From contig CAZWLE010000001.1 of assembly GCA_964634305.1 (NCBI GenBank), positions 78,120 through 142,119 of the forward strand: DNA of 64,000 nucleotides, read 5' to 3'. The notes under the pieces were generated by a model. The model had not been told where the DNA came from and made no database searches. It saw nothing but the letters and a program-made list of their open reading frames with translations. Shown here in pieces: positions 36,857 through 53,752 of this stretch (the first letter of the stretch is position 1; every line of letters begins with the position of its first letter). The DNA is from an uncultured Candidatus Saccharibacteria bacterium. Lineage in GTDB: Bacteria; Patescibacteriota; Minisyncoccia; Phycocordibacterales; Phycocordibacteraceae. A program made the position numbers and the translations under genes.

Positions 36857-37966
36857 ATGCGCCCGCTGAAAATCTCGGGAGATAGGCTCTTTTTTCTCAT
36901 CGTCGTCATTCTCGTCGTCGGTGGCGTCGCAATGTTTGCGTCGGCATCGCTTGGTCTTCTGGCACGTGCAGACGAATCTCCCCTCCGCCTTGCGTTCACG
37001 CAGCTCATGCTTGGGCTCGTGCCAGGCGTCATAGCGCTTCTTGCGCTCCGTTACATGTCTCCCAAGGCGATAGAGCGTTTTGCGCCTATTGTCTACGGAG
37101 GCGCCATTCTCCTTACGCTTCTCGTGTTTATTCCAGGCATAGGCCTCACGCTCAATGGAGCGACGCGCTGGATAAACCTTGGGTTTACTACTGTCCAGCC
37201 AGGCGAGTTCCTCAAAATAGGGGTCATCCTCATGCTTGCGTGGTGGCTTGCACGCGAACGCAGCAAACTCTCTGATTTCCGCTCTGGCCTTATCCCGTTT
37301 GGCATCATCGTGGGTCTGCCGTGTCTCATCCTCCTTGCGATGCCGAATACGTCGACCGCACTCGTTATTGGCGCGACTGCGCTTGGTATGTATCTGCTCG
37401 CGGGTGCGCCTTGGCGCGACATTCTCCTCATCATTGCTGCCGCTGCGCTCGTGCTTGCGATAGCAGTGTTCTCTCGGCCCTACCTTATGAGTCGCGTGAT
37501 GACGTATTTTGACCCTAGTCAGAACGCCCAAACCTCGAGCTACCAGATTCAACAGTCCCTTATAGCCATAGGGTCAGGCGGCATCATTGGTCGCGGGTTT
37601 GGCCAGAGCGCGCAGAAATTTAACTATCTGCCTGAGGCAGTAGGGGACTCGGTTTTTGCCGTGTACGCAGAGGAATTTGGCTTTATAGGGTCCGTCCTCC
37701 TAGTACTGCTGTTTGCAGGGTTTGCCATGCGTGGATTTGCGATAGCTGCTGACGCGTCTACTGCCTTTGGTGCCTTAGCCGCCACAGGACTAACCATGCT
37801 CATATCTATATCCGCCTTTTTAAACATAGGCGCGATGCTCGGTATCCTGCCGCTTACTGGCTTACCCTTACCGTTTGTGTCGCACGGCGGTACCGCGCTT
37901 CTTGCCGCGCTTGCCTCGGTAGGCATTATTTTGAACGTCGGCGCCCATCGAAAGAAGAAAGCCTAG
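36857..37966 (+). CDS. ftsW: SEDS-family peptidoglycan polymerase FtsW/RodA
   Basis: Multi-TM with RWINLG...QPGEFLKIGVILMLAWWLA. Confidence 0.85.
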   Translation: MRPLKISGDRLFFLIVVILVVGGVAMFASASLGLLARADESPLRLAFTQLMLGLVPGVIALLALRYMSPKAIERFAPIVYGGAILLTLLVFIPGIGLTLNGATRWINLGFTTVQPGEFLKIGVILMLAWWLARERSKLSDFRSGLIPFGIIVGLPCLILLAMPNTSTALVIGATALGMYLLAGAPWRDILLIIAAAALVLAIAVFSRPYLMSRVMTYFDPSQNAQTSSYQIQQSLIAIGSGGIIGRGFGQSAQKFNYLPEAVGDSVFAVYAEEFGFIGSVLLVLLFAGFAMRGFAIAADASTAFGALAATGLTMLISISAFLNIGAMLGILPLTGLPLPFVSHGGTALLAALASVGIILNVGAHRKKKA

Positions 37967-38003
37967 TTAGGTATTCACAATAAACATGTGGCGTTCATGA
38001 AGA

Positions 38004-38819
38004 GTGGGCAGCGGATGCTACACTTCATGGTATCTATCGGCACATGCTGGCGAACGCATGAATCTTTTTTCCCTACACAAACATGATCGTCGTATCACGC
38101 ATGTGTATTCGAATGCGACCGTACTTCCGAATCGCTATTCGTTCCGCTTGGTAAAGCGAGCGAGTGCCTACCCGGTTACTGAAACACCGCTTCCTGCGCC
38201 ATACGATATAGCGCCAATAGTAGTAAGCAGCGCACCAGAGCCCGCACCCATACCCGATGAGGCACCTGAGATAGTTACTACATTTGACGAACGTCCAGAG
38301 CTCGGAGCAAGCGTCGTTGACGACCAAAAGCGGATGTTCCTGAAGCTGGCGAGTGTCGTGGGTCTTGGCGTAGTGGCTGCCTCCGCGATTCCAGAAAAAG
38401 CGCAGGCATACGTTATGGGTAGTAGTCCTACCTCAGGCGTCGTCGGAATGAAGGATGCGACTAATACTCGTATTAATCCCGCTACTGAGGAAGCACTCCA
38501 GGCGATTCTGGAAGGTAATGCCGTATTGAAAAAGACCGTGAGTCTATCTGCGTCTGGAACTATCCATACCCCAGCCTCTGGGAAAAAAGTTCGTATCTAC
38601 AACACTAAGTTTTCACTTGATGCGAACGTTACCAGTGTCTCGTTCCGCTTTGCTTCGGGCGGAACTGATTTCGAAAAGTACATCTCGCCACGTACTGGCG
38701 GGCTGTACGGCACGAATAATCACCCGAACTACAAGGAGGGTGGGGTAGACGAGGTCGTATACTGCGTCATAAGCGGTAGCGCGAATGTGCAGATTAATAT
38801 TGATTATCTAGAGGTATAA
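38004..38819 (+). CDS. Hypothetical single-pass membrane protein; internal KR-M-F-L-K motif + hydrophobic core + AQA resembles a Tat-type signal
   Basis: DDQKRMFLKLASVVGLGVVAASAIPEKAQA occurs at residues ~100-130. The N-terminal 100 aa may be cytoplasmic, or the true start may lie downstream. Confidence 0.45.
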   Translation: MGSGCYTSWYLSAHAGERMNLFSLHKHDRRITHVYSNATVLPNRYSFRLVKRASAYPVTETPLPAPYDIAPIVVSSAPEPAPIPDEAPEIVTTFDERPELGASVVDDQKRMFLKLASVVGLGVVAASAIPEKAQAYVMGSSPTSGVVGMKDATNTRINPATEEALQAILEGNAVLKKTVSLSASGTIHTPASGKKVRIYNTKFSLDANVTSVSFRFASGGTDFEKYISPRTGGLYGTNNHPNYKEGGVDEVVYCVISGSANVQINIDYLEV

Positions 38820-38826
38820 TTTTCGT

Positions 38827-41235
38827 ATGGCTAAACGAGTCACCGAGCACACGTTCACTGGAGGTACGGTCATGTATGACGCGTATGATTCCACCAAGAC
38901 CGTTCTTGGCGATCTCATCCGTCAATACACCGGCGCTGCTTCAACAGATAAATTTGCCGGACCAGTTAAAGTTGCGGTTGCTCGCCCAAATGAAACATCA
39001 GTGGCGGTACCAGGTATCTATCCCCATGTGGTGCGGTGGGCCGATAAATCTGGGTACTACTCAACGGGTACCGTAGCAGTATCAGGAACTGCTGTAACCG
39101 GTACCAGCACTGCCTGGTTAACCGCAGGAGTACCCATCAACGCGCGTATTGGCTTTGGCACGACTGATCCTGTCGCAGTAACCACGTGGTACACCATTTC
39201 CGCCATTGCCTCAAACACCTCTATCACGATTGATACGACAGCAGGAACTATTGCGGGAGGTACGTCGTTTGTAATTGATATGAATTACAACATCGATTGG
39301 GTCTTCCTCGCTGACGCTGCGGCTGCGGCTGCCACTCGTCGTATCACCATGTTTGAATTCCGTCGTGGTACATCCGTATTTACTTGGAAGGGGTTTATCA
39401 CTCAAACCTACCCAACAGCTACTAACCACACCATAGCGGGTATGCGTGCTGTGTACGCACCCTACACAACCGGTACCGTTGCTGTATCTGGTGCAACGGT
39501 TACTGGAACGTCTACCTCCTGGAGCACTAACCGTATCAATATTGGATCGCGTATTGGCTTTGGCTCAACGGACCCTACTCAAATTTCGACCTGGTACTAC
39601 ATCAATGCCGTAGGCTCAGATACATCAATCACGATTCAAAATAACGTGACTGCGTCAGGCACGGGCGGTACTGCTTCAAACCTCACCATATCGGGCGGTA
39701 CGGCCTATGTGATTGAAGACTTGCGTGTTCTGACCTCAACAGTAAACGCCACAGCTACCAACGGCGGCCTCTTTATGACCCCTGGTCTCTCCTATGGTGA
39801 TTTCACCGCTGCCGGTACGACTATTGCCGCTGCGACAACGGTTGATAAGGTCAAAGCATGCTACTGGCTCGCTGACGCCTCAACCGTCACCAACGACGTG
39901 GCATCCGGTCTTGCTATTGACGACCAGGACAGTTGGACACAGCAGTACTGTTATGTGATTGAACGTCAAGCAGCGACAACTCCAGCAATATATAAATACA
40001 ATTTTCGTGTTGCGCTTGCCTCAATAACGTCTGGAAAAACTACTAGCGCCTTTGTACTTGCTACTGGTACTCAAAGCGTGACTGGTAACGTATCCCAAAC
40101 CAACAACGGTCGCATCGGCACGCTGCAGCATGGTCCTGGTATAGGAGTGAAATCGCTGTACTTTGCAACAACCACTCGTATCTATCGAGTCGCAGTCACG
40201 AATATTACCAACGCTTCTACGACTTTCCTTTCAGATGCTATGGTTGAAGTACCGACCGGAGGTACTAACACGTATGCTGCGACGGGTGCGTTAACAGGTG
40301 TTGAGATCTCTGACCAAATAGATCGTCTTGTCGTTACGTCGACAGGCGCTGCTGGTGTACGAAGTTATGTAACAAAGTACAACACTAACTCCGATCCGTT
40401 CGACCACATCTTCCTAGTCGATTCAAAACAGCTTGACCAATCAACTGCGGATTCTGATTCAGTTCCTCATCCAAACATTCAGGCAGGTATCATTAACGTA
40501 TGGTCTGAGGAAGGATTGACCTATATTTCTCGCACCGGTACCGCCTCAACGACGAACCATCTCTATGCAGTCCCTCTTGGCGCAGACTGGAGCTATGCGG
40601 ATGGTACGGTAAAGCAACGCCTTGTAACGCCTGAATTGGCTACCCCTAACGCCGTTAAGTATGTGCGCGCATATTTCAACAGCGCTCAGTACTTAGGTCT
40701 CGACAATCTCACCATTCCTACAGAACCAGTGCGCATGTATTACCGCACCTCGGGCATTAGTGATAACTCTGGAGCATGGACACTCATTGATCAAACAGGG
40801 GACATCACCGGAGTAGATGGGGCCGCGTCAATACAGTTTGCTCTAGAGTTCCGCGTTATTGGAACGTTCTGTCTTCCAAACCGTGTCTACAATGTCTGTG
40901 TCGTATATGAAGACGACACTACTGACAGTCACTATCAGCCGTCAGTGGCGAATTCCTCCACGGTTGATAAACGATTTGCGTGGCGCTTCTCAACCGCCTT
41001 TGGTGGCACTGTGCCAACCCTACGGGTACGTCTGTATAACGCTACATCAGGCGGTCTATTGGTTGACGACAATACAGCAAGTCCAACAGGTACGTTTGAG
41101 AAAAGCACCAACGATGGCGGAAGCTGGGGTTCCTACAACACCACTGACAAAGCAAACGACACTACCTACATTCGCTACACTCCTGCGTCCCTTGGTGACA
41201 ACATAAAAGTACGTGCGCTTTTGACTCTGGACTAA
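38827..41235 (+). CDS. Large Thr/Gly/Ser/Ala-rich beta-type protein (802 aa) with internal domain duplication; putative surface/structural protein
   Basis: Two ~150-aa repeats (TGTVAVSGTAVTGTSTAW...RIGFGTTDP...TWY.I.A..S.TSITI). No signal peptide and no catalytic motifs. Confidence 0.5.
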   Translation: MAKRVTEHTFTGGTVMYDAYDSTKTVLGDLIRQYTGAASTDKFAGPVKVAVARPNETSVAVPGIYPHVVRWADKSGYYSTGTVAVSGTAVTGTSTAWLTAGVPINARIGFGTTDPVAVTTWYTISAIASNTSITIDTTAGTIAGGTSFVIDMNYNIDWVFLADAAAAAATRRITMFEFRRGTSVFTWKGFITQTYPTATNHTIAGMRAVYAPYTTGTVAVSGATVTGTSTSWSTNRINIGSRIGFGSTDPTQISTWYYINAVGSDTSITIQNNVTASGTGGTASNLTISGGTAYVIEDLRVLTSTVNATATNGGLFMTPGLSYGDFTAAGTTIAAATTVDKVKACYWLADASTVTNDVASGLAIDDQDSWTQQYCYVIERQAATTPAIYKYNFRVALASITSGKTTSAFVLATGTQSVTGNVSQTNNGRIGTLQHGPGIGVKSLYFATTTRIYRVAVTNITNASTTFLSDAMVEVPTGGTNTYAATGALTGVEISDQIDRLVVTSTGAAGVRSYVTKYNTNSDPFDHIFLVDSKQLDQSTADSDSVPHPNIQAGIINVWSEEGLTYISRTGTASTTNHLYAVPLGADWSYADGTVKQRLVTPELATPNAVKYVRAYFNSAQYLGLDNLTIPTEPVRMYYRTSGISDNSGAWTLIDQTGDITGVDGAASIQFALEFRVIGTFCLPNRVYNVCVVYEDDTTDSHYQPSVANSSTVDKRFAWRFSTAFGGTVPTLRVRLYNATSGGLLVDDNTASPTGTFEKSTNDGGSWGSYNTTDKANDTTYIRYTPASLGDNIKVRALLTLD

Positions 41236-41238
41236 GCC

Positions 41239-41862
41239 ATGACTCCGATTACTAAGAGTGAACAGGTCGCTGATATAAAGGACTTGGTAGTCCTGACAGA
41301 TAGCGGCGAGTACGCAGATACTGATCTTATCCTCTGCGCTTCAACCGATGCGCCAACCATTGCTATTGCTCAGTATCAAGCACAATTCGTGAAGTATGGT
41401 GAAATGGTCTACCAGTTCGAAAAGCCAGAAGAGTTGGGGCAGGCTATCGTTGCACTTGATGCAGAGTCTACACATGACGCTGCGCAATTGTGGCGTGAAG
41501 AAGAGGCACGACGTATCGCACGAGAGCAGGGAACATTGACCCCTGCTGACCAAAGCCCTGCTCCTGATGCAGTCGTACCACCAGAACCTGAAGCAGAGCC
41601 ACAACCAGAAGAAGAGGTTGAATTTCTTAACGACCCGCCTGCACAAAACGCTACATCAACGCCACCGACCAGTGACCAACCGTCTGAACCGGAAATGCCA
41701 GTTATTGACGTCACTGATCCTCCTGAAGTACTAGGAACCACGACTCCTGACCTTCCACCCGTTGACCCAGACCCACTTCCACCTCCTATCACAGAGCCAG
41801 ACATTGTGCCTATTCCTGAACCAGAGGTAATAAGCAATACCAGTACTACCACTCCAGAGTAG
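41239..41862 (+). CDS. Hypothetical protein with globular N-domain and acidic Pro/Glu-rich disordered tail
   Basis: 207 aa; the tail is PEPEAEPQPEEE...PPVDPDPLPPPITEPDIVPIPEPE. Confidence 0.45.
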   Translation: MTPITKSEQVADIKDLVVLTDSGEYADTDLILCASTDAPTIAIAQYQAQFVKYGEMVYQFEKPEELGQAIVALDAESTHDAAQLWREEEARRIAREQGTLTPADQSPAPDAVVPPEPEAEPQPEEEVEFLNDPPAQNATSTPPTSDQPSEPEMPVIDVTDPPEVLGTTTPDLPPVDPDPLPPPITEPDIVPIPEPEVISNTSTTTPE

Positions 41863-41864
41863 CT

Positions 41865-42053
41865 ATGGCACTCACTGATATCAATTTCAACGAAGGTGAA
41901 GGGCAGGATTTTATCGTTGAACGACCTACCGGCACATTAGGAACACCGGTTGATATCCTTCTTACAGCAAACGCTGATGACTATCCGGTGCTTGAGACAG
42001 AACCAGTGGGTGGTGGCGGTGGGGGAGACGAAATCTTCATCATTAACGACTAA
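41865..42053 (+). CDS. Small hypothetical protein (62 aa) with G6 stretch
   Basis: A short ORF tightly packed (2-nt gap) after the previous gene. Confidence 0.3.
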   Translation: MALTDINFNEGEGQDFIVERPTGTLGTPVDILLTANADDYPVLETEPVGGGGGGDEIFIIND

Positions 42054-42076
42054 CGAGACTCTGCTATCCTACGGGC

Positions 42077-42808
42077 ATGGAGGACGCGGTCGGGTTTGCT
42101 GAAACATACGGTACCTATCTAGAGGAGCTGCGGGTTCGTCTATATCGGTTGGCTATTGTCTTTGTCGCTGCTTTTTTTATTGGCGTTGCCTCAACCGGCG
42201 TATTATTGCCATTCTTTGTACGCTTTCTTGCCATAGAGAACGTCACTATTATCACTACGTCTCCTTTTCAATTGCTTGAACTCGCCATGAATACGGGCTT
42301 CTTTGTTGCCCTTATCGTGACCATTCCGCTCGCATTTCATCAGGCATACACGTTTTTGCGCGACGGTCTTTTGCCACAAGAACGACGTATTATCTTTTTT
42401 CTGATACCGCTATCCCTAGGATTGTTTGCGGTAGGGTTCGCCTACGGTTTTGCGGTCATGTACTACGCCATACAATTCATCGCGAGTCTCAATACAACAT
42501 ATGGCATTACGAACCTATGGAGCATTACTCAGTTTATTTCCCAAATGCTCATTACCGCCGCGCTCCTTGGCTGCATTTTCCAATTCCCGGTCATTATTTC
42601 AGGCCTCGTGCGCCTTGGGGTATGTAGCGCGAACTTCCTGCGCCGTCATCGGCGAAGCGCCTATGCCTTGATATTCGTCTTCGTCGCTTTACTTCCCCCT
42701 ACCGACGGGCTATCGTTTCTTGTGATGTCCCTTCCGCTTATAGGACTATACGAGCTCACCATCATCGGTAACTCGTTTGGTCGACGGAAAGAACTCTTAA
42801 AAGCGTAA
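42077..42808 (+). CDS. tatC: Twin-arginine translocase subunit TatC
   Basis: 243 aa with 6 TM and a TatC-like topology and composition (FFV.F...G..F..P). Confidence 0.7.
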   Translation: MEDAVGFAETYGTYLEELRVRLYRLAIVFVAAFFIGVASTGVLLPFFVRFLAIENVTIITTSPFQLLELAMNTGFFVALIVTIPLAFHQAYTFLRDGLLPQERRIIFFLIPLSLGLFAVGFAYGFAVMYYAIQFIASLNTTYGITNLWSITQFISQMLITAALLGCIFQFPVIISGLVRLGVCSANFLRRHRRSAYALIFVFVALLPPTDGLSFLVMSLPLIGLYELTIIGNSFGRRKELLKA

Positions 42809-42819
42809 CCTTAGCACCT

Positions 42820-42978
42820 ATGTTTGGACTCGGTTCAAATGAGCTCATCATCATCGCAGTCATTCTTGTGCTCCTTTTTGGCGCAACAAGAATTCCTGCC
42901 CTCACTCGTGGGGTAGCGGACGCGATTCGCACGCTCCGCGGCGCATTCAAGGACGAGGACAAGAACAAGAAGGGCTAG
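42820..42978 (+). CDS. tatA: Twin-arginine translocase subunit TatA/E (52 aa)
   Basis: It is absent from the track (<60 aa). MFGLGSNELIIIAVILVLLFGATRIP has an N-terminal TM, a hinge, and an amphipathic helix (ALTRGVADAIRTLRGAF). Confidence 0.7.
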   Translation: MFGLGSNELIIIAVILVLLFGATRIPALTRGVADAIRTLRGAFKDEDKNKKG

Positions 42979-43064
42979 CGTTCGCTTGTTCAAGAACACC
43001 GCCACAGGAGCACTGTGGCGGTGTTCTTGTGTAGATGTGGAAATGATGAAGAAAAGGGGGGTGG

Positions 43065-46000
43065 GTGGGTGCTACCATAGCTACAGCCTCACGGCGGCAT
43101 TCCGTGCATATTCCATCTTTCACCACTGCACGTATTACGCGACTAAGCGCACTAGCGTTGGTTCTGTTCGCTGTACTTGCTGCAACGGCGTATGCCGCGT
43201 ATCCGCAGTACCTTCCCAACACGTCTGTCACCATCGGTGAATTTGTGTATGACGACGATTTTCAAGCAACCACCACTGCTGGCTGTACCGTCAGCGTGTA
43301 CGAGCCAGGAGGCAGTCTGTCAGTTAACGCTGCTTCTATGTCAGCTGACGCCAACAGCTGGTACTCGTACTCATTTACACCGTCCGGAGGGACGGTCGGT
43401 ATTTGGCGCACCGTCATGTCGTGTGGCTCCTCAGGAAATGGCAGTCTTATCCGTGCTGACAAGACCTTTGAGATTACCAACAACATCGTCTCATCGACCT
43501 CGGTCGCCGCACTCGTTAACACCAACACCAACACGGCCATAGCAACTGCCTCTTCTTCACTCTCAGCCACATTACCTGGGTCTATTTGGGCTTTCTCTGG
43601 AAGAACGCTGACGTCGTTTGGTACGTTGGTGTCTGACATCTGGGCAAACGGTACGCGTACGCTCACTGGTTTTGGCACGCTCGCGTCTGACGTATGGGGT
43701 GTCGCAACGAGAACGCTTACCGCTGCAACACTAAGCTCCGGTTCGCTCGCGACTCTCACTGACGTTCAGAACGCGTCGTCATCAGTAGTCACACTGGTAA
43801 ACGCCAATACTAATACAGCATCGTCATCGATAGCGTCGGTAGTAAATGCCAACACGAACGCCATTGTTGCAGTGGCATCATCCTCTCTAGCTGCGGTGAT
43901 AAATGCGAACACTAACGCATCCATCCTTACTGCTTCTACGTCACTTGGCACGTCGATTGCTTCTGTATCTACATCGATTACCAATATTCCAACAGCCGTA
44001 TGGGCATCGGGTACACGCACCCTAACCTCATTTGGCACGCTCGCGTCAGACGTATGGACGAGTGGTACGCGCACACTCACAGGCGCAGGTCTCACCTCAG
44101 GTTCACTCGCTACACAAACGGATGTGCAGAATGCATCGTCATCGGTAGTGACGCTCGTAAATGCTAATACCAACACTACCGTTAATACCGCATCCTCCTC
44201 ACTTGCGGCTGTTATTAACGCAAATACCAACCTGCAAGTCCTCACCGCATCCTCATCTCTTGGCGCATCAATTGCGGCTGTCGCATCCTCAATCACTAAT
44301 ATCCCAACGAATGTATGGGCTGCAGGTACTCGTACGCTCACGAGTTACGGCACGCTCGCGGCTGATGTGTGGACCAACGGTACGCGCACGCTTACCGGTG
44401 CCGGTCTCTCGTCTGGCTCACTTGCGACACAGTCTGACGTTCAAACTGCCTCCTCGTCACTTGGCTCAGCGGTTTCTGCAAGTACGGCGAGCGTAAATGC
44501 CAACACTAACTCCATTGTAGGTACTGCTTCGTCATCGCTCGCTGCCATCATTAACGCGAACACGAACCTTCAAGTCCTGACCGCATCAACCTCACTTGGT
44601 ACTTCGATTGCATCCGTAGCGTCTTCAATCACGAACATTCCAACCGCAGTCTGGGCTGCGGGTACCCGTACGCTCACTGGGTTTGGCACCCTTGCAGCTG
44701 ACGTCTGGACCAACGGCACGCGTACGCTTACCGGTGCGGGCCTCACGTCTGGTTCACTCGCTACACAAACGGATGTGCAGAATGCATCGTCATCGGTCGT
44801 AACGCTTGTAAATGCCAACACGAATACCACCGTTGGTACGGCATCTTCGTCGATAGCGTCTGTCGTGAATGCCAATACGAATGCACAGGTTCTTGCTGCA
44901 TCCTCGTCGCTTGGTGCAACTCTTTCAACCCTCTCAAGCTCTATATCAAACGTTCCTGCAGCCGTTTGGAATATTGCTACATCGACTCTCACCACACCAG
45001 GTTCTATCGGCAGGGTGCTTGCGCTTAACATCGATATTCCAATCTCTTCCGTTTCGGGCGGCGCTGGCATCACCGTTGCTGATATCTGGGCATATGGCGC
45101 ACGTACACTCACAAGCGCCGCACTCACCTCAGGTTCACTCGCTACACAAACGGATGTACAAAATGCCTCCTCGTCTGTCGTTACTCTTGTGAACGCAAAT
45201 ACCAACACGGCCTCCTCCTCAATCGCAGCGGTGGTGAATGGCACGATTGTTACTGCGTCGTCATCGCTTGGTTCAGCAATATCGGCAGGTACGGCAAGCG
45301 TAAATGCCAACACGAATGCAACGGTGCTGAACGCATCGTCGTCTCTTGCAACATCGATTTCTGGTATACCGGCAGCAGTATGGGCAGCTGGAACACGTAC
45401 CCTAACCTCCTTTGGTACGCTCGCAGCTGATGTATGGACGAACGGCACACGCACACTCACCGACGCTGGTCTTACTTCAGGTTCGCTTGCGACCCAATCT
45501 GATGTTCAGACCGCATCAAGCTCTCTAGGGGCTGCAGTCTCTGCAGGGACAGCAAGCGTAAATGCCAACACGAACGCAGTCGTTGGTTCCGCATCCTCTT
45601 CGCTCGCATCAGTTATCAATGCAAATACCAATCTCCAGGTACTCACCGCATCAACCTCACTTGGTACCTCTATCGCATCGGTTGCTACCTCAATCACCAA
45701 CATTCCAACCGCAGTATGGGCTGCGGGTACCCGTACGCTTACTGGATTTGGCACCCTCGCGTCTGACGTGTGGGCAGTTGGAACACGTACGCTCACGGGC
45801 GCTGGTCTTAGCTCCGGTTCACTTGCCACACAGTCTGATGTTCAGACCGCCTCCTCGTCACTTGGCTCAGCCGTTGCTGCTGGTACGGCGAGTGTGAACG
45901 CGAACACTAACAGTATCGTTGGCACCGCATCCTCCTCGATAGCAGCAGTGGTGAATGCCAATACTAACTCCGTCGTTGCCATCGCATCCTCCTCACTTGC

Positions 46001-49000
46001 CGCCGTCATTAATGCAAACACGAACGCAGCAGTCCTCACGGCTTCTACCTCACTTGGCACATCGATTGCATCCGTCGCAACGTCAATCACCAATATTCCA
46101 ACGGCCGTATGGGCCTCAGGTACTCGTTCTCTCACCACGTTTGGCACGCTCGCCTCTGATGTATGGGCCGTTGGTACACGTACCCTCACTGGCGCAGGTC
46201 TGAGCTCAGGCAGCCTTGCGACCCTTACTGACGTTCAGAACGCATCTTCATCGGTCGTAACGCTGGTTAATGCCAATACCAACACTACCGTCGGCACTGC
46301 CTCTTCATCGCTTGGTTCAGCGGTCTCTGCAGGAACCGCAAACGTGAATGCAACGGTCGCTACTGCATCGTCATCACTCGCATCAATCATTAATGCGAAC
46401 ACTAACCTTCAGGTACTGACCGCATCCTCATCTCTTGGTGCATCAATTGCGACTGTTGCGTCTTCTATAACAAATATTCCTACCAATGTATGGGCTGCAG
46501 GTACTCGTACACTCACGAGTTACGGCACCCTCGCGGCTGATGTATGGACGAACGGCACAAGAACGCTCACTGGCGCAGGTCTAAGTTCAGGTTCACTCGC
46601 AACACAATCAGACGTTCTTACTGCATCAAGCTCTCTCGGTTCAGCGGTATCTGCAGGAACCGCGAGTGTGAATGCGAATACTAATAGCGTCGTAGGCACT
46701 GCCTCGTCATCAATTGCATCGATAGTTAACGCAAACACTAATACTCAGGTCCTCACCGCCTCCACGTCACTCGGTGCTTCTATCGCATCCGTAGCGTCTT
46801 CAATCACGAACATTCCAACCGCAGTCTGGGCTGCGGGTACCCGTACGCTCACTGGGTTTGGCACCCTTGCAGCTGACGTCTGGACCAACGGCACGCGTAC
46901 GCTTACCGGTGCGGGCCTCACGTCTGGTTCACTCGCTACACAAACGGATGTGCAGAATGCATCGTCATCGGTCGTAACGCTTGTAAATGCCAACACGAAT
47001 ACCACCGTTGGTACGGCATCTTCGTCGATAGCGTCTGTCGTGAATGCCAATACGAATGCACAGGTTCTTGCTGCTTCCTCGTCTCTTGGCGCATCACTCA
47101 GCGCGCTCCCAACCGCTATTTGGGGCGTAGCAACAAGCACGTTGAATGTTCCTAACTCCATTGGTCTCGTACTCGCCACAAACATCGACCGCGCTATCTC
47201 AAGCGTTACTGGTGTGGGAGGAGGCCTCAGCGCGGCTGATGTATGGGCATACGGTACCCGCACACTCACTGGCGCATCCCTTACTTCAGGCTCACTTGCC
47301 GTTCAGTCAGATGTACTCACTGCTTCCTCATCGCTTGGTAGTGCAATTACGAATAGTCAGACCGCAATCAATAGCAATACCGACACAACGGTCGGGACGG
47401 CATCGAGCTCCATCGCTGCAGTGGTGAATGCAAACACCAACTCAGTCGTACAGGCAGCATCTTCATCGCTTGGGATTTCACTTTCCAGTCTTGCGTCAGC
47501 CGTTGCCGCGGTACCAGTAGGGGTGTGGGCAAACAGTACTCGTTCACTCACGACGTTCGGCACCCTCGCGTCTGATGTATGGGGTGTAGGTACTCGTACG
47601 TTGACCGGTGCTGGTCTCTCGTCTGGATCACTTGCAACACAAACTGACGTACAGACTGCCTCAAGCTCGGTCGCTGCAGTCGTAAACGCAAACACGAATG
47701 CTGCTATTAGCACTGCATCATCGTCAGTAGCATCAGTCGTTAATGCCAATACCAACGCGAGCGTACTAACTGCGTCTACATCGCTCGGTACATCGATCGC
47801 ATCGGTCGCAACGTCTATCACCAACATTCCAACCGCGGTCTGGGCAGCAGGCACCCGTACGCTTACTGGATTTGGCACCCTTGCAGCTGACGTCTGGACC
47901 AACGGTACGCGCACGCTTACCGGTGCCGGTCTCTCGTCTGGCTCACTTGCGACACAGTCTGATGTTCAAACAGCTTCTTCATCGCTTGGCTCAGCGGTTA
48001 CTGCCGGTACGGCGAGTGTGAACGCGAACACTAACAGTGTCGTTGGCACCGCATCCTCCTCTGTTGCGTCAGTCGTGAATGCAAACACAAACGCAACGGT
48101 TCTCGCTGCGTCATCATCTCTTGGCCTGTCCCTCTCAACGATTTCTTCGTCCATCACCGGCATCCCAACTGCGGTATGGGGCGTGGCTACCTCAACGCTT
48201 TCAACACCAGGGTCGATTGGTCGCGTACTCTCAGAAAACATCGACATTCCACTCTCTACTATTTCAGGTGGGGGAGGAGCTACCGCAGCTGACATCTGGG
48301 CGTACGGCGCACGCACACTCACAAGCGCTGCGCTCACGTCAGGCGCTATCGCTACCCAAAGCGACATACAGACCGCATCGTCATCTATCGCTGCAGTCGT
48401 GAATACGAATACGTTCACGACGGTCTCTAATGCGTCGTCATCCATTGCTGCAGTCGTTAATACAAACACGGTCGCTGCAGTACAAACTGCTTCAACCTCT
48501 CTCGGTGCTTCAATTTCAAATATTCCAAACGCGGTATGGAGTGCAAGTACCAGAACCCTCACGTCGTTTGGCACCTTGGTTAACGACATATGGAACTTCG
48601 CAACGCGTACACTCACGACCAGTACATCAGCAACCTGGAGTATGTCGCTCTCTGGCTCTAAGAATGTTCTTGCAGGTACGGCATATCGCGCCACGGTAAC
48701 GCTTTCAAATGACGGAAATCTTGAAGACCCATTGGCTGCACCAACGATTACGATTTATGACAGCAATCGTGCAGCCGTCGTCACTAATGCTGCAATGACG
48801 CATGCAGGTACTGGTATCTATCAGTACACGCTCACTACCTCAGGCAGTGCATCGGAAGGTGCATGGGAAGCACTCGTTACCTCAAACGTTGAGAGCGGAA
48901 AGACGCTCACGAGTTCTGAGTTCTTCACGCTCTCAACCGCACCAGCGCAGGTGCTCATCCAGTCGATGGCATCCACCACCGTGCCAAACATTGCCGCAAA

Positions 49001-49487
49001 CATTCGTATCACAAACGAAGGTAACGTCGATTACGAATACCAGTACGAGTGGTGTGTGGTATCTACGATTGGTAACGCCTGTGGTGGGGGAGACGACATC
49101 TACTACGCATCAGCTGCCAAACTCATTGAGACGGGACAAAACTTTGATACCACGCTCACCGCAACCGTACCGCTTACCGGTACCTACTACTTCAAGACGG
49201 TCGTCTATTTCGGTGCTGAATCGTCTGGCGCCTCACGTCAGTTCACTGCAACGGCTGGCAGCACCGGTGGTGGTGGAGGCGGTGGTGGAAGCGGTAGTTG
49301 TGATGACAACCGTGAAGACGCTGACCTTAACTGTGACGGCAAGGTAAATGCCATCGACTTCTCGATTCTTCTAGCGTTCTGGAAGACAGAGCCACCGTTC
49401 CGTAATCCGGGGGTTGACCTCAATAATGACGGCAAAGTGGATGCTATCGACTTCTCGATACTTCTCTACCGCTGGGAACGCAATTAA
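43065..49487 (+). CDS. Giant repetitive surface protein (2140 aa): RR-containing signal/anchor, ~1900 aa of Ala/Ser/Thr/Asn-rich tandem repeats, Gly-rich linker, C-terminal type-I dockerin
   Basis: GTG start after an AAAAGGGGGG tract. The N-terminus is ASRRHSV + LSALALVLFAVLAATAYA. Repeats carry VNANTN / WAAGTRTLTGFGTLAADVW motifs. The C-terminus has duplicated Ca-binding segments DLNCDGKVNAIDFSILL / DLNNDGKVDAIDFSILL. Confidence 0.8.
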   Translation: MGATIATASRRHSVHIPSFTTARITRLSALALVLFAVLAATAYAAYPQYLPNTSVTIGEFVYDDDFQATTTAGCTVSVYEPGGSLSVNAASMSADANSWYSYSFTPSGGTVGIWRTVMSCGSSGNGSLIRADKTFEITNNIVSSTSVAALVNTNTNTAIATASSSLSATLPGSIWAFSGRTLTSFGTLVSDIWANGTRTLTGFGTLASDVWGVATRTLTAATLSSGSLATLTDVQNASSSVVTLVNANTNTASSSIASVVNANTNAIVAVASSSLAAVINANTNASILTASTSLGTSIASVSTSITNIPTAVWASGTRTLTSFGTLASDVWTSGTRTLTGAGLTSGSLATQTDVQNASSSVVTLVNANTNTTVNTASSSLAAVINANTNLQVLTASSSLGASIAAVASSITNIPTNVWAAGTRTLTSYGTLAADVWTNGTRTLTGAGLSSGSLATQSDVQTASSSLGSAVSASTASVNANTNSIVGTASSSLAAIINANTNLQVLTASTSLGTSIASVASSITNIPTAVWAAGTRTLTGFGTLAADVWTNGTRTLTGAGLTSGSLATQTDVQNASSSVVTLVNANTNTTVGTASSSIASVVNANTNAQVLAASSSLGATLSTLSSSISNVPAAVWNIATSTLTTPGSIGRVLALNIDIPISSVSGGAGITVADIWAYGARTLTSAALTSGSLATQTDVQNASSSVVTLVNANTNTASSSIAAVVNGTIVTASSSLGSAISAGTASVNANTNATVLNASSSLATSISGIPAAVWAAGTRTLTSFGTLAADVWTNGTRTLTDAGLTSGSLATQSDVQTASSSLGAAVSAGTASVNANTNAVVGSASSSLASVINANTNLQVLTASTSLGTSIASVATSITNIPTAVWAAGTRTLTGFGTLASDVWAVGTRTLTGAGLSSGSLATQSDVQTASSSLGSAVAAGTASVNANTNSIVGTASSSIAAVVNANTNSVVAIASSSLAAVINANTNAAVLTASTSLGTSIASVATSITNIPTAVWASGTRSLTTFGTLASDVWAVGTRTLTGAGLSSGSLATLTDVQNASSSVVTLVNANTNTTVGTASSSLGSAVSAGTANVNATVATASSSLASIINANTNLQVLTASSSLGASIATVASSITNIPTNVWAAGTRTLTSYGTLAADVWTNGTRTLTGAGLSSGSLATQSDVLTASSSLGSAVSAGTASVNANTNSVVGTASSSIASIVNANTNTQVLTASTSLGASIASVASSITNIPTAVWAAGTRTLTGFGTLAADVWTNGTRTLTGAGLTSGSLATQTDVQNASSSVVTLVNANTNTTVGTASSSIASVVNANTNAQVLAASSSLGASLSALPTAIWGVATSTLNVPNSIGLVLATNIDRAISSVTGVGGGLSAADVWAYGTRTLTGASLTSGSLAVQSDVLTASSSLGSAITNSQTAINSNTDTTVGTASSSIAAVVNANTNSVVQAASSSLGISLSSLASAVAAVPVGVWANSTRSLTTFGTLASDVWGVGTRTLTGAGLSSGSLATQTDVQTASSSVAAVVNANTNAAISTASSSVASVVNANTNASVLTASTSLGTSIASVATSITNIPTAVWAAGTRTLTGFGTLAADVWTNGTRTLTGAGLSSGSLATQSDVQTASSSLGSAVTAGTASVNANTNSVVGTASSSVASVVNANTNATVLAASSSLGLSLSTISSSITGIPTAVWGVATSTLSTPGSIGRVLSENIDIPLSTISGGGGATAADIWAYGARTLTSAALTSGAIATQSDIQTASSSIAAVVNTNTFTTVSNASSSIAAVVNTNTVAAVQTASTSLGASISNIPNAVWSASTRTLTSFGTLVNDIWNFATRTLTTSTSATWSMSLSGSKNVLAGTAYRATVTLSNDGNLEDPLAAPTITIYDSNRAAVVTNAAMTHAGTGIYQYTLTTSGSASEGAWEALVTSNVESGKTLTSSEFFTLSTAPAQVLIQSMASTTVPNIAANIRITNEGNVDYEYQYEWCVVSTIGNACGGGDDIYYASAAKLIETGQNFDTTLTATVPLTGTYYFKTVVYFGAESSGASRQFTATAGSTGGGGGGGGSGSCDDNREDADLNCDGKVNAIDFSILLAFWKTEPPFRNPGVDLNNDGKVDAIDFSILLYRWERN
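43500..48600 (+). repeat. Intragenic tandem repeat array (unit ~110 aa / ~330 bp, higher-order period ~2175 bp) including ~290-bp identical copies at 44610-44899 and 46785-47074
   Basis: Checked by direct comparison of nucleotide lines. Other copies are ~80-90% identical. The many antisense track ORFs here are repeat artefacts. Confidence 0.8.
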
Positions 49488-49489
49488 CT

Positions 49490-50323
49490 ATGAGACCTTT
49501 CCTTATCGCTCTTCTGCTTCTTCTCATCGCGCCAAGCGCGCATGCTGCGCGTGTTGAAGTGACGCCGTCCGTAAGCGAAGCGGCACCAGGTCAATCATTC
49601 ACTCTTACGGTCGTCTTGTTTGCTGACGAGACCGCGGTGAACGTTGCCGAAGGAAGGATTCTTATTCCTGAAGGCGTCCATGTAGATGCGGCAAGTGTTG
49701 CCGGTGCTGCGTTTACGCTCTGGCCCTCTCCACCTTCTTACTCTCCCGTTGAAAACGCTGTCCTGTTCTCAGGAGGCGTCCCTGGCGGTATTGCAGGCAG
49801 AACATCAGGTACGCTATTTACGATACGCGCTCGTGCGGATGAAGCAGGTTCGTACGTGTTCTCACCACGCGCCGTCAACGCATATCTTGATGATGGAAAA
49901 GGTACGTTGGATTCCGTCACTACTTCGTCAGCCGTGGTGTCAGTGCATGAGGGCGCATCAGCACCAGCCGGTGTCGATCAAGCAAAGGAACCACTCTCTG
50001 CCGCGATTGGTAGTGACCCATCACTCTTTGACGGTAAATACTTTGTTGCCTTTTATGGTGGCGACCGAGGTAACGGCATCCTTCGCTACGAAGTGAAGGA
50101 AGGTGTCTTTGGTAGCTTTGTTGACGCTGGACGCTACTACGTACTCGAAGACCAATCGCTTGGGCGCCAGATTACGATTCGCGCGATAGACGCTGAGGGT
50201 GTCGCTGCAGAGAAGGTACTTGCCGCAGAACGTGGTATTCCTGCCTGGGTCTTCATCGCCGGTGCCATCTTCCTCGCCCTTGCTCTCTGGCGCCTCATCC
50301 GCCGCATGCGCAGCCGCGTATGA
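49490..50323 (+). CDS. Cohesin-like domain protein, Sec signal peptide, C-terminal TM anchor
   Basis: Signal is MRPFLIALLLLLIAPSAHA. The cohesin-like pattern is VEVTPSVSEAAPGQSFTLTVVL...NVAEGRILIPEGVHV. The C-terminus is WVFIAGAIFLALALW + RRMRSR. Confidence 0.55.
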   Translation: MRPFLIALLLLLIAPSAHAARVEVTPSVSEAAPGQSFTLTVVLFADETAVNVAEGRILIPEGVHVDAASVAGAAFTLWPSPPSYSPVENAVLFSGGVPGGIAGRTSGTLFTIRARADEAGSYVFSPRAVNAYLDDGKGTLDSVTTSSAVVSVHEGASAPAGVDQAKEPLSAAIGSDPSLFDGKYFVAFYGGDRGNGILRYEVKEGVFGSFVDAGRYYVLEDQSLGRQITIRAIDAEGVAAEKVLAAERGIPAWVFIAGAIFLALALWRLIRRMRSRV

Positions 50324-51783
50324 AAAAGCTCCTCGCACTCACCCTCGCACTCTTTCTTCTAGCGCCGTCAGCGTTTGCGGCGAGCATGAGCGTGCTGCCG
50401 GCAGGACGGAATGTTAATGCCGGTGACCTCGTGACTGCACGCGTCTCTATTAATACGAGCGGGGTAGCAATTAACCAAGCAGAAGCAACGCTTCGTTTTC
50501 CTACCGATGTTCTGGAAGTAGTCTCAGTGTCAAAGTCGTCGTCTATCTTCTCACTCTGGGTTGAAGAGCCAACCTATTCAAATACCGCAGGTACCGTTTC
50601 TTTTAATGGTGGTGTCCCAACCCCTGGCTACACCGGAAGCGACGGTGCGGTTGTCTCCGTCACTTTTCATGCAAAGACAGCAGGGACGGCGAGCCTTCTC
50701 CTGTCCGATGCAGCGGTGCGCGCAAACGACGGGCGAGGAACGGATGTTCTGTCCAGCTGGAGTGGGGCAACGATAACCGTAACCGCTGTCACTACGCCTG
50801 CGCCGCTTCCTGCTGCACCGACGCCGACGCCTAGCCCTACGCCGACCCCAACACCAGCTCCAATACCGTCTGACACCTCTGCAACCATTTCCTCGCTGAC
50901 GCACCCAAGTCAGGACATGTGGTATGCAAACGCGAATCCGACCGTACGCTGGAGCCTGCCACGTGGCGCCACCTCCGTACAAGTCATCGTTTCTTCTGAC
51001 CAAGATGCAGTCCCTACCGTCACCCACGCCGCATCGGTGACCGAACGAAAGATTGAGAATCTTGCAGACGGCACCTCGTACTTCAATCTTCGCTACCGCA
51101 CAGGTAGTACGTGGAGTGACCTGTATACCTTCCGTCTCAATATCGATACCGCACCACCAGAAGCGATGACGCACTCGTTTGTATATGACGAAGCATCACG
51201 TGAGCTCATGATTGCGCTTGCGGCAAGCGATGAGACGTCAGGTATCGCAAGCTACGAGCTCACGATTGACAAAGACGCTCCGGTATCACTTCGCGCTGAA
51301 GCGTTTGCGGAAGGTACCTACGGGTATCCGGTTGATGAACCAGGTCTCCACACCGTCTCACTCGCCATTATTGATAAAGCAGGGAATCGTCTCACGATAC
51401 CGGGCTCCTTCATGGTTCCGGTTTCCGTCCTCGACACGCCACTCGTCTCGTTCGGCTTCTTCAATATCACCTTGCTCGGCGCACTCCTCTTCATGGGCCT
51501 CATCTCCATACTTTCTCTCCTCGTTGCCGCTACTGCGCTCTGGCGTCCGCACCAGAAGCCAAAGAAAGCTGCATCTCCGGTAAAGGGTCGTGCGTCAAAA
51601 GAGATAGTCCGTCAGGCATTCGATATCTTGCGCCAAGACCTTGATACGAATGTAGGCGTAGCACAGAAGATACGAGACGGTAAGCCGCTCACCGCTGAAG
51701 ATGAGGCTGCGGGCCGCACCATGCGTAAAAACCTTGATGACTTCGAGCGTTACCTCAACGAGGAGGCAAACCTCTCCAAGTAG
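50320..51783 (+). CDS. Cohesin-like domain protein with Pro/Thr linker, Ig/FN3-like middle domains, C-terminal TM anchor and cytoplasmic tail
   Basis: Signal is MKKLLALTLALFLLAPSAFA. The cohesin-like N-domain is NVNAGDLVTARVSINTSGVAINQAEATLRFPTDVLEVVSV. A TPTPSPTPTPTP linker and a TM (LLGALLFMGLISILSLLVAATALW) follow. Confidence 0.55.
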   Translation: MKKLLALTLALFLLAPSAFAASMSVLPAGRNVNAGDLVTARVSINTSGVAINQAEATLRFPTDVLEVVSVSKSSSIFSLWVEEPTYSNTAGTVSFNGGVPTPGYTGSDGAVVSVTFHAKTAGTASLLLSDAAVRANDGRGTDVLSSWSGATITVTAVTTPAPLPAAPTPTPSPTPTPTPAPIPSDTSATISSLTHPSQDMWYANANPTVRWSLPRGATSVQVIVSSDQDAVPTVTHAASVTERKIENLADGTSYFNLRYRTGSTWSDLYTFRLNIDTAPPEAMTHSFVYDEASRELMIALAASDETSGIASYELTIDKDAPVSLRAEAFAEGTYGYPVDEPGLHTVSLAIIDKAGNRLTIPGSFMVPVSVLDTPLVSFGFFNITLLGALLFMGLISILSLLVAATALWRPHQKPKKAASPVKGRASKEIVRQAFDILRQDLDTNVGVAQKIRDGKPLTAEDEAAGRTMRKNLDDFERYLNEEANLSK

Positions 51784-51813
51784 GAGAGGGGGCGCGTGCT
51801 ATCATGCCCGCAC

Positions 51814-52968
51814 ATGAAGATAGTTTTCGCCGGCGGAGCCACAGGTGGTCACTTCTACCCCCTTATTGCAGTCGCTGAAGAGGTCCGCGCACTCGCACGC
51901 GAACGACAGCTTATTGAGCCGAAGCTCTACTATCTTGCGCCTACCACGTTTGATACAGAGGCACTCTTTGAGAACGAAATTACTTTTATCCCCTGTCCTG
52001 CAGGGAAGTGGCGTCGCTATTTCTCCCTCCAAAACTACACCGACCTTTTTGTAACCCTTGGCGGCTGCATTTCAGCCGTTATGACACTGTTCTCGATATA
52101 TCCGGATGTCGTCTTTAGTAAGGGAGGGTATGCATCAGTGCCCGTAGTGCTTGCGGCACGTCTTCTACGCATTCCGGTCATCATTCACGAATCAGATGTA
52201 GAGCCAGGACGTGCAAACCTTCTCGCTGCCTCATTTGCGTACCGTATTGCGGTGACTTTTGATAAAACGACGACGTACTTCCCAGAAAAAGTACGCGGAA
52301 AGGTCGCACGTACCGGTATTCCCATTCGCAGCGCGCTTCGTCATCCCGTAGCAGAAGGTGCGCGCGAAGAACTACGCCTCGACCCGAACGTTCCTACCAT
52401 TCTTATTTTGGGTGGGTCATCTGGCGCACAGAAGATTAACGAAGTAGTGCTTTCAGGTCTTTCCGAACTGGTTGATACCGCAAATATCATTCATCAAACG
52501 GGACGCGACCTCTATACCGGCGTCGCCGGTGCCGCAAAAGTGATTCTTGAGAAAAGCGCGAACGCTGGTCGCTATCACGCCTTCCCATACCTCAACTCAC
52601 TCTCTATGCGCCGCGCGTCTGGTGCTGCAGACCTTGTCGTATCCCGCGCTGGTATGACGGCAGTTGCCGAGATTTCTATCTGGGGTAAGCCAGCTATTCT
52701 CATTCCGATTCCCGAGTCGGTAAGCCATGACCAACGCACCAACGCATACGCATATGCGCACACGGGTGCGGCGAGTGTGCTCGAAGAGCAGAACCTCTCG
52801 CCACACGTCCTCGTGTCTGAAGCTCGTCGCATCCTTGGTGACGCAAATGTGCGCAGCGCCATGAGTGCCGCGAGCGCAACCTTCGCGAACGTTGAGGCTG
52901 GGAAGATTATTGCTGAAGAACTTATTGCGCTTGGTTTGTCCCACGAACCACAGGCAAAAAACTTCTAA
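51814..52968 (+). CDS. murG: UDP-N-acetylglucosamine--N-acetylmuramyl-(pentapeptide) pyrophosphoryl-undecaprenol N-acetylglucosamine transferase
   Basis: MKIVFAGGATGGHFYP is the G-loop, and the GT28 C-terminal domain is present. The start is set at Met7 of the track ORF. Confidence 0.85.
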   Translation: MKIVFAGGATGGHFYPLIAVAEEVRALARERQLIEPKLYYLAPTTFDTEALFENEITFIPCPAGKWRRYFSLQNYTDLFVTLGGCISAVMTLFSIYPDVVFSKGGYASVPVVLAARLLRIPVIIHESDVEPGRANLLAASFAYRIAVTFDKTTTYFPEKVRGKVARTGIPIRSALRHPVAEGAREELRLDPNVPTILILGGSSGAQKINEVVLSGLSELVDTANIIHQTGRDLYTGVAGAAKVILEKSANAGRYHAFPYLNSLSMRRASGAADLVVSRAGMTAVAEISIWGKPAILIPIPESVSHDQRTNAYAYAHTGAASVLEEQNLSPHVLVSEARRILGDANVRSAMSAASATFANVEAGKIIAEELIALGLSHEPQAKNF

Positions 52969-52969
52969 T

Positions 52970-53752
52970 ATGGCAAAGGAGAAATATCCGAAGAGCAGTG
53001 TATACCGACACAATCGAGACATGTTAGAGGAGCGCGCAAGAAATGCTACGGACGTATTTCGGGAAGGAAAGGCATGGATGTCGCATAAGGAACGTGCTGA
53101 GATGATTACTGACATGTTCGGTTCAGGGGTGCGTCCAGAAAAACTGAGTGATGACGAACTCAACGACATCATCGATTACGTTGAGTTCCTTTCGAAAAGA
53201 ACCGGGGCGGCAGCGCTACATTCCAAGAAGTTTCGTTCAGAAGTAGATGAGGGTTCAACACAAAACGCTCTGGAGAAATGGTCTCCTACAAGATCAGGCA
53301 TGATTGGCCATGACGCTATGCATGGTATGTGGGCCTGGCTTCGCTCAGGTGGACTGTCATTTGCACCAGGGTTTATCGACCAACCAGACGAGGAGGGAGA
53401 CAACATTGCATGGATGGAGGAACGCTACACAGAGCTTTTAAGTGATAACTTTTTTGACCTGCGCGAAGCATTCATGGCCGACGGCGTTGATGCTTCACCG
53501 GACCCTGTACGAAGAGCACTACTCATATGGGAAAACAGCTATGGTGAACCGGAGCGGTCAGCGTATATGACAGAACATCGGATGCCGGAATTAGTAGCTA
53601 TGGCACGTAATCTGTATGCCGAGATGAAAAAGCATGGGGATGGAAACATAGACCCGTATTTTGCGTTGCGAGAATTTCAGAGAACCATGAAGCCAGTCCT
53701 CGAACGTTTACGTCGTGCACGTAAGCGTGGTCAAGAGGCGGTCCTGGATTGA
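52970..53752 (+). CDS. Hypothetical protein, 'EKYPKS' family paralog A
   Basis: MAKEKYPKSSVYRHN... with GHDAMHGMWAWL. It is paralogous to 56440..57249. The start is at Met36 of the track ORF, just after the murG stop. Confidence 0.5.
   Translation: MAKEKYPKSSVYRHNRDMLEERARNATDVFREGKAWMSHKERAEMITDMFGSGVRPEKLSDDELNDIIDYVEFLSKRTGAAALHSKKFRSEVDEGSTQNALEKWSPTRSGMIGHDAMHGMWAWLRSGGLSFAPGFIDQPDEEGDNIAWMEERYTELLSDNFFDLREAFMADGVDASPDPVRRALLIWENSYGEPERSAYMTEHRMPELVAMARNLYAEMKKHGDGNIDPYFALREFQRTMKPVLERLRRARKRGQEAVLD

Follow-up and report, generated by a model that had tools for sequence, protein, structure and literature searches.

A Tat and cohesin–dockerin cassette between ftsW and murG

The window analysed here is a 64,000-nucleotide (nt) stretch of contig CAZWLE010000001.1 (positions 78,120–142,119) from an uncultured Candidatus Saccharibacteria bacterium, in which two genes of the division and cell wall (dcw) cluster, ftsW (36857–37966) and murG (51814–52968), lie 13.8 kb apart; the gap holds ten same-strand genes, nine of which are named in the list below. 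Judged by sequence comparison, this block is a vertically inherited, conserved cassette of Paceibacteria-type bacteria within the Candidate Phyla Radiation (CPR) that has moved a few kilobases into the ftsW–murG spacer in this species. It comprises two units, the first (o271-o802-o207-o62-tatC-tatA) being a minimal TatAC translocase of the twin-arginine translocation (Tat) pathway encoded together with its putative cargo, and the second (giant-o277-o487) a candidate fibre with its membrane cohesins. A first-pass annotation, made from the sequence alone, had described a split of ~14 kb filled by nine genes without cell-wall biosynthetic function. The open reading frame (ORF) map and the Pfam assignments of the flanks bear out the split, while the gene count rises to ten, a conserved 62-amino-acid (aa) ORF at 41865–42053 having been overlooked. 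The features are as follows (positions in the window).

35713–36789, + strand: mraY (Pfam Glycos_transf_4, 76 bits)
36857–37966, + strand: ftsW, left flank of the block (Pfam FTSW_RODA_SPOVE, 315 bits)
38058–38819, + strand: o271, Tat-signal precursor of 253 aa (the ATG at 38058 is the true start)
38827–41235, + strand: o802, 85-kDa all-beta protein without a signal peptide, the best-conserved cassette gene
41239–41862, + strand: o207, acidic protein (isoelectric point 4.05), family found at all loci
41865–42053, + strand: o62, acidic protein of 62 aa, present at every cell locus
42077–42808, + strand: tatC (PF00902, 132.6 bits; TIGR00945, 116.8 bits)
42820–42978, + strand: tatA, 52 aa (TIGR01411, 45.5 bits against a cutoff of 53.9; E = 4e-12)
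42992–43028, + strand: 16-bp perfect hairpin (folding energy compared with shuffles)
43065–49487, + strand: giant fibre protein of 2140 aa with a C-terminal dockerin (nt 49323–49463; Dockerin_1, 34.5 bits)
49490–50323, + strand: o277, cohesin-like N-domain (paralogue of the o487 cohesin domain)
50320–51783, + strand: o487, cohesin at aa 31–133 (PF00963, 29.3 bits)
51814–52968, + strand: murG, right flank (Pfam GT28 N and C domains)

The genes of the first unit are tightly packed, with intergenic distances from o271 to tatA of 7, 3, 2, 23 and 11 nt. At the left junction 91 nt separate the ftsW stop codon from the o271 ATG, and at the right junction the murG ATG lies 30 nt past the o487 stop codon, as is also seen in L012 (loci and contigs from other assemblies are cited by such numbers). 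Both junctions were recovered in two contigs (L012 and L013) of an independent assembly (Logan, SRR23592405) at 97–98.5% DNA identity, which rules out an assembly artefact. An exact-sequence look-up with the proteins of the window itself gave no match.

Both Tat components named in the first-pass annotation stand. The tatC product has a strong PF00902 match; for tatA, which scores below the TIGR01411 cutoff, the product is identical to that of L013, which bears a precomputed PF02416 match. The translocase is minimal, with TatA and TatC genes and no TatB-specific gene in the cassette. Its predicted cargo is o271 and not the dockerin-bearing giant, to which the translocase had previously been assigned. 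The o271 signal consists of the motif QKRMFLK, an h-region and the site AQA followed by Y, with cleavage after residue 117 and a mature protein formed by a 136-aa jelly-roll domain. Every o271 homologue shows the succession (K/R)RxFLK, hydrophobic stretch and P-x-x-A-x-A; among the 120 best homologues KR is present in at least 88 and RR in 15, and RR forms occur in L006, in L008 (as NRRAFLK) and in L010 and L011 (as RRRxFLK). This corresponds to the S/T-R-R-x-F-L-K type of Tat cargo motif (as a KR variant in the window), followed by an h-region of moderate hydrophobicity and an AxA site, and Tat tolerates a single R-to-K change (PMC6708511). No other Tat-like signal was present among the 56 larger ORFs of the window. 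The giant, o277 and o487 carry ordinary Sec-type signals with AxA sites, and the giant was rejected as a Tat cargo: its RR at aa 10–11 sits 17 residues before the h-region, lacks an FLK context and is not conserved, and its homologues are Sec-type. As for o271 itself, the earlier recognition of a Tat signal holds, while its description as a membrane protein gives way to that of a secreted precursor in which a long n-region precedes the signal.

Scans of o271, o207 and o62 against Pfam, NCBIfam and PHROG gave no match, nor did a PDB sequence-profile search with o271, whose predicted structure resembles the jelly rolls of phage cement and turret proteins. The region preceding the o271 signal (38058–38330; also L002–L011) contains a conserved L(P/S)N(R/K)YSF(R/K)L motif 40–90 residues upstream of the Tat motif, which could be a chaperone-binding or regulatory site.

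The three genes that follow o271 encode proteins with neither a signal peptide nor a hydrophobic segment, so placed that signal-less partners are encoded beside a signal-bearing protein, as in Tat hitchhiking. The o802 product is predicted to form a six-bladed beta-propeller with extra beta domains. Its identity across cassette loci is 69–87%, compared with 42–69% for tatC, and its rate of evolution is as low as that of housekeeping genes. The family has no fewer than 1724 clusters at 90% identity; at 50% identity it has 545, which were recovered by a profile search over 1.84 billion representatives and are mostly ~710 aa long. Its composition (K+E 4.1%, compared with 10–18% in the window's soluble cytoplasmic proteins; S+T+N+G 38%) is unlike that of those proteins and close to that of the giant fibre. 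The o207 product has a conserved N-domain of ~100 aa and a Pro/Thr/Glu-rich tail, and the o62 family has the consensus MALTDINF.EGEGQDF..E...GGG.IFI... The o207 tails (41540–41862 in the window, and homologues) are disordered, with recurring (S/T)TTPE-like motifs in all species that could be glycosylation sites or propeller-binding motifs, and several end in a basic patch. By inspection, o802 contains the Asp-box-like motifs ISDNSGAW (40756–40779, aa 644–651) and STNDGGSW (41104–41127, aa 760–767) in conserved alignment columns, and sialidases and endosialidase tailspikes are among its structural matches.

Searches with o802 found no Pfam, NCBIfam or PDB sequence match to any enzyme family, and a PDB sequence-profile search with it gave no match at all; its identity to all propeller structures is 9–13%, its structural matches in BFVD have TM-scores of ≤0.25, and no catalytic residues were identified in it. 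These results make quite improbable the reading in which o802 is a catalytic propeller (sialidase-, lactonase- or depolymerase-like) carried through Tat by o271 and degrading an envelope polymer of a host or prey cell while the fibre holds the target. What speaks for such an enzyme are the endosialidase-type tailspikes in the BFVD list and the two Asp-box-like motifs; cofactor- or metal-bearing propeller enzymes are also typical Tat cargo.

The second unit begins with the giant, a Ser/Ala/Thr-rich protein composed of a Sec-type signal, a conserved N-terminal domain, ~14 repeats of 105–131 aa, Ig-like domains, a Gly run and a type-I dockerin. The dockerin, already proposed in the first-pass annotation, passes the PF00404 gathering threshold (cutoff 22.9 bits; aa 2087–2133) and is a duplicated segment with two DxNxDGxxxxxD calcium-loop motifs, DLNCDGKVNAID and DLNNDGKVDAID; its segments, each a calcium-binding loop followed by a helix, are DLNCDGKVNAIDFSILLAFW and DLNNDGKVDAIDFSILLYRW. 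It also passes Pfam in five of five homologues tested (26–49 bits). Homologues of the giant range from 690 to 2305 aa and have in common the Sec-type AxA signal, the N-domain (GEFVYDDDF...), a variable number of repeats, the Gly run and the C-terminal dockerin. Tandem Repeats Finder found no repeats in the giant gene, the repeats being detectable at the protein level only, and a PHROG scan of the giant gave no match.

Directly downstream, in the order previously noted, lie the two candidate cohesin anchors. The o487 product comprises a signal peptide, a cohesin (cutoff 24.1 bits; the L008 homologue scores 34.1 bits), a Pro/Thr linker, Ig-like domains, a transmembrane helix at ~aa 375–408 and a charged cytoplasmic tail, and a precomputed PF00963 match is found in ~17 of 120 o487 homologues. 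In the o277 product a signal peptide is followed by a cohesin-like N-domain and another beta domain, with a C-terminal transmembrane helix at ~aa 243–273. The earlier designation of both as cohesin-like is thus upheld by Pfam for o487, while o277, which has no Pfam match, is supported by paralogy, its N-domain sharing 34% identity with the o487 cohesin domain (BLASTP E = 2e-10). A joint profile of the two domains matched R. flavefaciens cohesins exclusively in the PDB (5m2o, 2.7e-4; 5aoz, 4.5e-4; 5m2s, 8.9e-3), with no others below E = 0.1. Every homologue of either protein combines a signal peptide with a single cohesin-like module, additional beta domains and a transmembrane helix at the C-terminus, to which the o487 types add a charged tail in the cytoplasm. 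Dockerin loops occur nowhere else in the 64-kb window than on the fibre, and no catalytic Pfam domain was found in the cassette. A cellulosome was rejected, there being no dockerin-bearing carbohydrate-active enzyme, no carbohydrate-binding module (CBM), no multi-cohesin scaffoldin and no S-layer homology (SLH) or sortase anchor; the non-cellulosomal character proposed earlier is accordingly retained.

The two units are separated by the hairpin, which lies right after the tatA stop codon. The 69-nt stretch around it has a folding energy of -37.2 kcal/mol (z = -6; 0 of 200 shuffles as stable) and no U-tract; it probably acts as a terminator or as a processing site, dividing the cassette into two transcripts. 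Scanning for promoter and terminator consensus sequences gave nothing informative.

Conservation and relocation of the cassette

A one-genome-per-species scan with o802 yielded 11 loci, all in CPR metagenome-assembled genomes labelled Saccharibacteria, Nomurabacteria or Paceibacterota; elsewhere, homologues bear the names Pacebacteria or Parcubacteria. All ten families co-occur in more than 15 other CPR genomes, at every locus of sufficient length (tblastn; L001–L011 and L014–L018, and likewise L020). Four gene orders were observed: the canonical one, one with tatCA first (L014–L016), one with tatAC inverted (L005) and one with the fibre–cohesin unit divergent (L003 and L017). The tatCA pair or the fibre–cohesin unit may shift or invert, yet at the loci examined it never parts from the remaining cassette. 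Some cassettes contain tandem tatA pairs (L006, 14042–14365; L008, 13722–14081), and L018 has two o802 paralogues in tandem (5177–10618).

The neighbours of the cassette vary by locus, from RND efflux genes with ychF, through ruvABC with a tRNA synthetase, to ribosomal proteins. The neighbourhood in the window is common only to L002, the closest other species, in which mraY-ftsW-murG-gltX-M23 are contiguous, ftsW and murG lie 44 nt apart, and the cassette begins ~3.7 kb past M23, ~6 kb from murG. The split is lineage-specific on this synteny comparison, which had been suggested as a check in the first-pass annotation. Protein identities between the window and L002 are 84% for o802, 98% for tatA and 69% for tatC, with 76% for both ftsW and murG, so that the divergence of the cassette proteins is about that of housekeeping proteins. 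The composition of the insert, another check suggested at that stage, is not deviant, with GC content and GC content at third codon positions (GC3) both within the range of the flanks.

Because L002 carries the cassette nearby, the divergence is housekeeping-like, GC and GC3 are native and signs of mobility are lacking, we regard the present position as the outcome of relocation and not of acquisition. No flanking repeat longer than 8 nt and no adjoining tRNA were found at the cassette, and no integrase or transposase was found in the block, which therefore shows none of the marks of a genomic island (mobility genes, tRNA or repeat ends, deviant composition). A recent horizontal island is rejected on the same grounds, and the 'accessory island' of the first-pass annotation is better described as a widely conserved cassette. 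The block contains no capsid, portal, terminase or tail-tube gene that would indicate a prophage, and a PHROG scan covering eight cassette proteins and the giant (tatC excepted) gave a weak tail-fibre match for o802 (E = 0.0067) and a TatA match, and nothing else. That an acquired island or prophage remnant interrupts the dcw cluster is thus very unlikely, its recent acquisition being largely refuted: the interruption of two genes adjacent in L002, the four genes with phage homologues described below and the weak tail-fibre match are outweighed by the results above and by the occurrence of the cassette in hundreds of CPR lineages among housekeeping genes. The dcw-cluster position is a species-level curiosity, in which the 30-nt spacing suggests that murG transcription is probably coupled to the fibre–cohesin unit.

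Other features of the window lie outside the cassette. An insertion of ~805 bp between murG and gltX (52954–53758) carries a 260-aa ORF (52970-52752 region; MAKEKYPKSS...) for which neither Pfam nor NCBIfam gave a match and PHROG gave no significant one, and is missing from L012, which is 97–98% identical, and from L002, where gltX comes directly after murG. Upstream (27447–29516), a secreted subtilase of family S8 that contains a bacterial surface Ig-like domain and a peptidoglycan-binding domain (PG_binding_1) is probably another envelope-associated protein of the organism. Downstream of the dcw/gltX block, a 676-aa ORF without a Pfam family (58568–60598) and another of 266 aa (61034–61834), which weakly matches the Ig-like family Big_13, have no counterpart in L002.

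Phage relatives of the first four genes

The first four cassette genes have phage-encoded homologues in the same order, which the first-pass annotation did not include. Some members of the o802 family sit in Tat cassettes (L020), while others are found in contigs that lack tatAC, o271 signals and cohesins and instead contain phage genes, which on L019 and L021–L024 encode tail fibres, collagen-like tail fibres, HNH endonucleases, a head protein and ribonucleotide reductase. The largest tail-fibre match is that of a 2822-aa protein (to phrog_11518, E = 2e-134), and tail-fibre genes adjoin o802-group genes in L019, L023, L024 and L029. Relatives of o802 with 41–59% identity are carried by 15 IMG/VR viral contigs. 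Across 19 phage-like contigs scanned with hidden Markov models, an o62-like gene lies right after the o802-like gene in 14; in 4 a gene for the o207 N-domain follows the o802-like gene, and 1 contig has a jelly roll of the o271 type. The gene order in L030 is portal (E = 2e-101), a 351-aa protein, o802-like, o207N-like, o62-like, a 164-aa protein and head maturation protease, and the 351-aa protein ends in the o271 jelly roll, without a Tat signal. By homology and gene order, o271-o802-o207-o62 forms a unit that phage particle modules contain as well, which argues for mutual assembly of the four proteins and for their action outside the cell.

A tblastn search of o802 against 50,697 deposited phage genomes found no homologue. 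A crude neighbour-joining tree of 140 o802-family members is star-like, does not set cell-type members apart from phage-type ones and shows no direction of transfer. Two phage-like contigs contain tandem arrays of three or four o802-like genes (L021, 4192–16651; L032, 1–5148), a pattern typical of diversifying receptor-binding genes, and a 1935-aa PKD/BNR protein has one of the arrayed copies fused to its N-terminus. An hhalign comparison of the o271 family with the 156-aa protein downstream of the L021 array showed no relation.

The phage fibre-module homologues also bear on whether o802 is instead the lattice protein of an S-layer or cell coat with the cohesin proteins as its membrane anchors. 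Such a role would fit a large, beta-rich protein of low charge and high Thr/Ser content, and S-layers are reportedly visible on CPR cells in cryo-electron microscopy. Given that o802 has neither a signal peptide nor a dockerin, that its conservation is too high for a typical S-layer protein and that its homologues occur in phage fibre modules, we attach very little probability to this explanation.

A proposed surface structure and its comparison with known systems

The reading that we favour, with modest confidence, is that this conserved, relocated cassette builds one surface structure, through Tat hitchhiking of a phage-like complex and the mounting of a dockerin fibre on membrane cohesins. 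In this scheme, o271, o802, o207 and o62 would fold and assemble in the cytoplasm, with o271 as the carrier, and TatAC would export the folded four-protein complex of ~128 kDa by hitchhiking. The 210-kDa fibre would leave the cell by Sec; o277 and o487, held by their C-terminal helices, would each display one cohesin module outside the cell, and the fibre would be fixed to either or both through calcium-dependent dockerin–cohesin binding with its conserved N-domain distal. Together the two units would form an attachment structure that binds (or cuts) its target, a glycan or a protein, on a substrate or a partner cell. Established Tat behaviour includes both the co-expression of a minimal TatAC translocase with one cargo and the co-export of hitchhikers (PMC6708511), and Tat has been reported in Paceibacteria (PMC9166423). 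If these proteins must leave the cell folded, the retention of tatAC beside their genes in a reduced genome would be explained, and a single joint structure seems most likely because the units stay linked through at least four gene-order rearrangements.

Several points weigh against this reading. Gene linkage is the sole tie between the two units; the o271 signal in the window has KR and not RR; and the extracellular-like composition of o802 is only suggestive. The propeller fold is generic and uninformative on ligand or catalytic activity. The cohesin similarity is weak, PF00963 being passed by two of the six o487-type proteins tested and by none of the o277-type, and with two cohesin proteins and a single dockerin in the cassette one partner is unaccounted for.

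A rival explanation takes the units as two unrelated neighbours, a TatAC translocase with a jelly-roll cargo served by o802, o207 and o62 as cytoplasmic helpers (maturation or proof-reading), and a separate cohesin–dockerin fibre. Dedicated cytoplasmic chaperones are common for Tat cargoes (general Tat knowledge; PMC6708511), the three putative helpers carry no export signal, a strong hairpin lies between the units, and the units are on opposite strands in L003, L005 and L017. We nevertheless consider this unlikely: the units are adjacent at every locus examined despite four rearrangements, the composition of o802 is surface-like and not cytoplasmic, its homologues are phage fibre-module genes with no Tat cargo to mature, and an 85-kDa propeller at 69–87% identity would be an unusual chaperone. 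The joint surface structure remains our preferred interpretation. A further-reaching version, which we offer only tentatively and think has a limited chance of being right, is that Paceibacteria-type CPR bacteria took over (or share with phages) a phage-particle fibre cassette, consisting of a jelly-roll base protein, a beta-propeller receptor-binding protein and two small partners, and gave the jelly-roll subunit a Tat signal by which the pre-assembled complex leaves the cell folded. Mounted with the dockerin-ended fibre on membrane cohesins, it would be a previously undescribed host-attachment organelle of ultra-small bacteria that combines phage parts, a Tat pump and connectors of cellulosome type.

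The attachment of CPR/Patescibacteria to partner cells, and their interaction with them, is largely obscure outside a few cultivated Saccharibacteria, and a cassette that is widespread and strongly conserved in one large CPR class offers concrete candidate parts of such an apparatus on the surface: one defined cargo for Tat, a cohesin–dockerin pair, and a propeller also present in phages, a hint of a shared receptor or of an arms race. In the proposed structure, both Tat hitchhiking and the cohesin–dockerin connection would serve a new biological purpose. Literature searches that combined cohesin or dockerin with CPR, Parcubacteria or Patescibacteria did not turn up the cassette; all that was pertinent was one essential Saccharibacterium protein with a dockerin domain (PMC10633639). 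Nor could we find a description of the o802 or the o271 family, all database names being 'hypothetical protein' and neither having a Pfam family. The parts each have precedent (non-cellulosomal cohesin–dockerin modules, minimal TatAC with a single cargo, hitchhiking and Paceibacteria Tat), while for the combination no description was found. Non-cellulosomal cohesin and dockerin modules were catalogued by Peer et al. 2009, according to the citation in PMC8542988.

Compared with the canonical dcw cluster, mraY, ftsW and murG are alike in lying on one strand, contiguously so in L002; the window differs in its 13.8-kb block, unrelated to cell-wall synthesis, between ftsW and murG. Cellulosomes (Clostridium thermocellum, Ruminococcus flavefaciens) share with the cassette a secreted protein with a C-terminal type-I dockerin of two calcium-loop/helix segments and single putative cohesin modules on cell-bound anchors encoded next door, the nearest profile relatives being R. 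flavefaciens cohesins. The cassette, by contrast, lacks a glycoside hydrolase, a CBM and a scaffoldin with several cohesins; its dockerin is borne by the 210-kDa repeat fibre, its anchors use a C-terminal transmembrane helix instead of SLH or sortase, a Tat unit is linked, and the host is a reduced-genome CPR bacterium.

The Tat unit resembles the B. subtilis tatAdCd-phoD and tatAyCy-efeB systems and the E. coli hydrogenase-2 HybOC hitchhiker (PMC6708511) in having TatA and TatC without TatB, an operon shared with an xRxFLK/AxA protein, and partners without a signal encoded directly downstream. It differs from these in that the cargo is a small jelly-roll protein without a recognisable cofactor site, the putative passengers are structural proteins of phage-particle type and not redox subunits, KR replaces RR in most cassette family members, and co-export is putative. 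Compared with phage fibre or decoration modules, which include collagen-like tail fibres, beta-propeller tailspikes and jelly-roll cement or decoration proteins, the cell copies are surrounded by housekeeping genes, without further phage genes in the vicinity, and their jelly-roll subunit has acquired a Tat signal, whereas the phage contigs lack tatAC and the cohesin–dockerin unit; the likeness lies in the homologues of o802, o62, the o207 N-domain and the o271 jelly roll, which occur in the same order beside portal, protease or tail-fibre genes.

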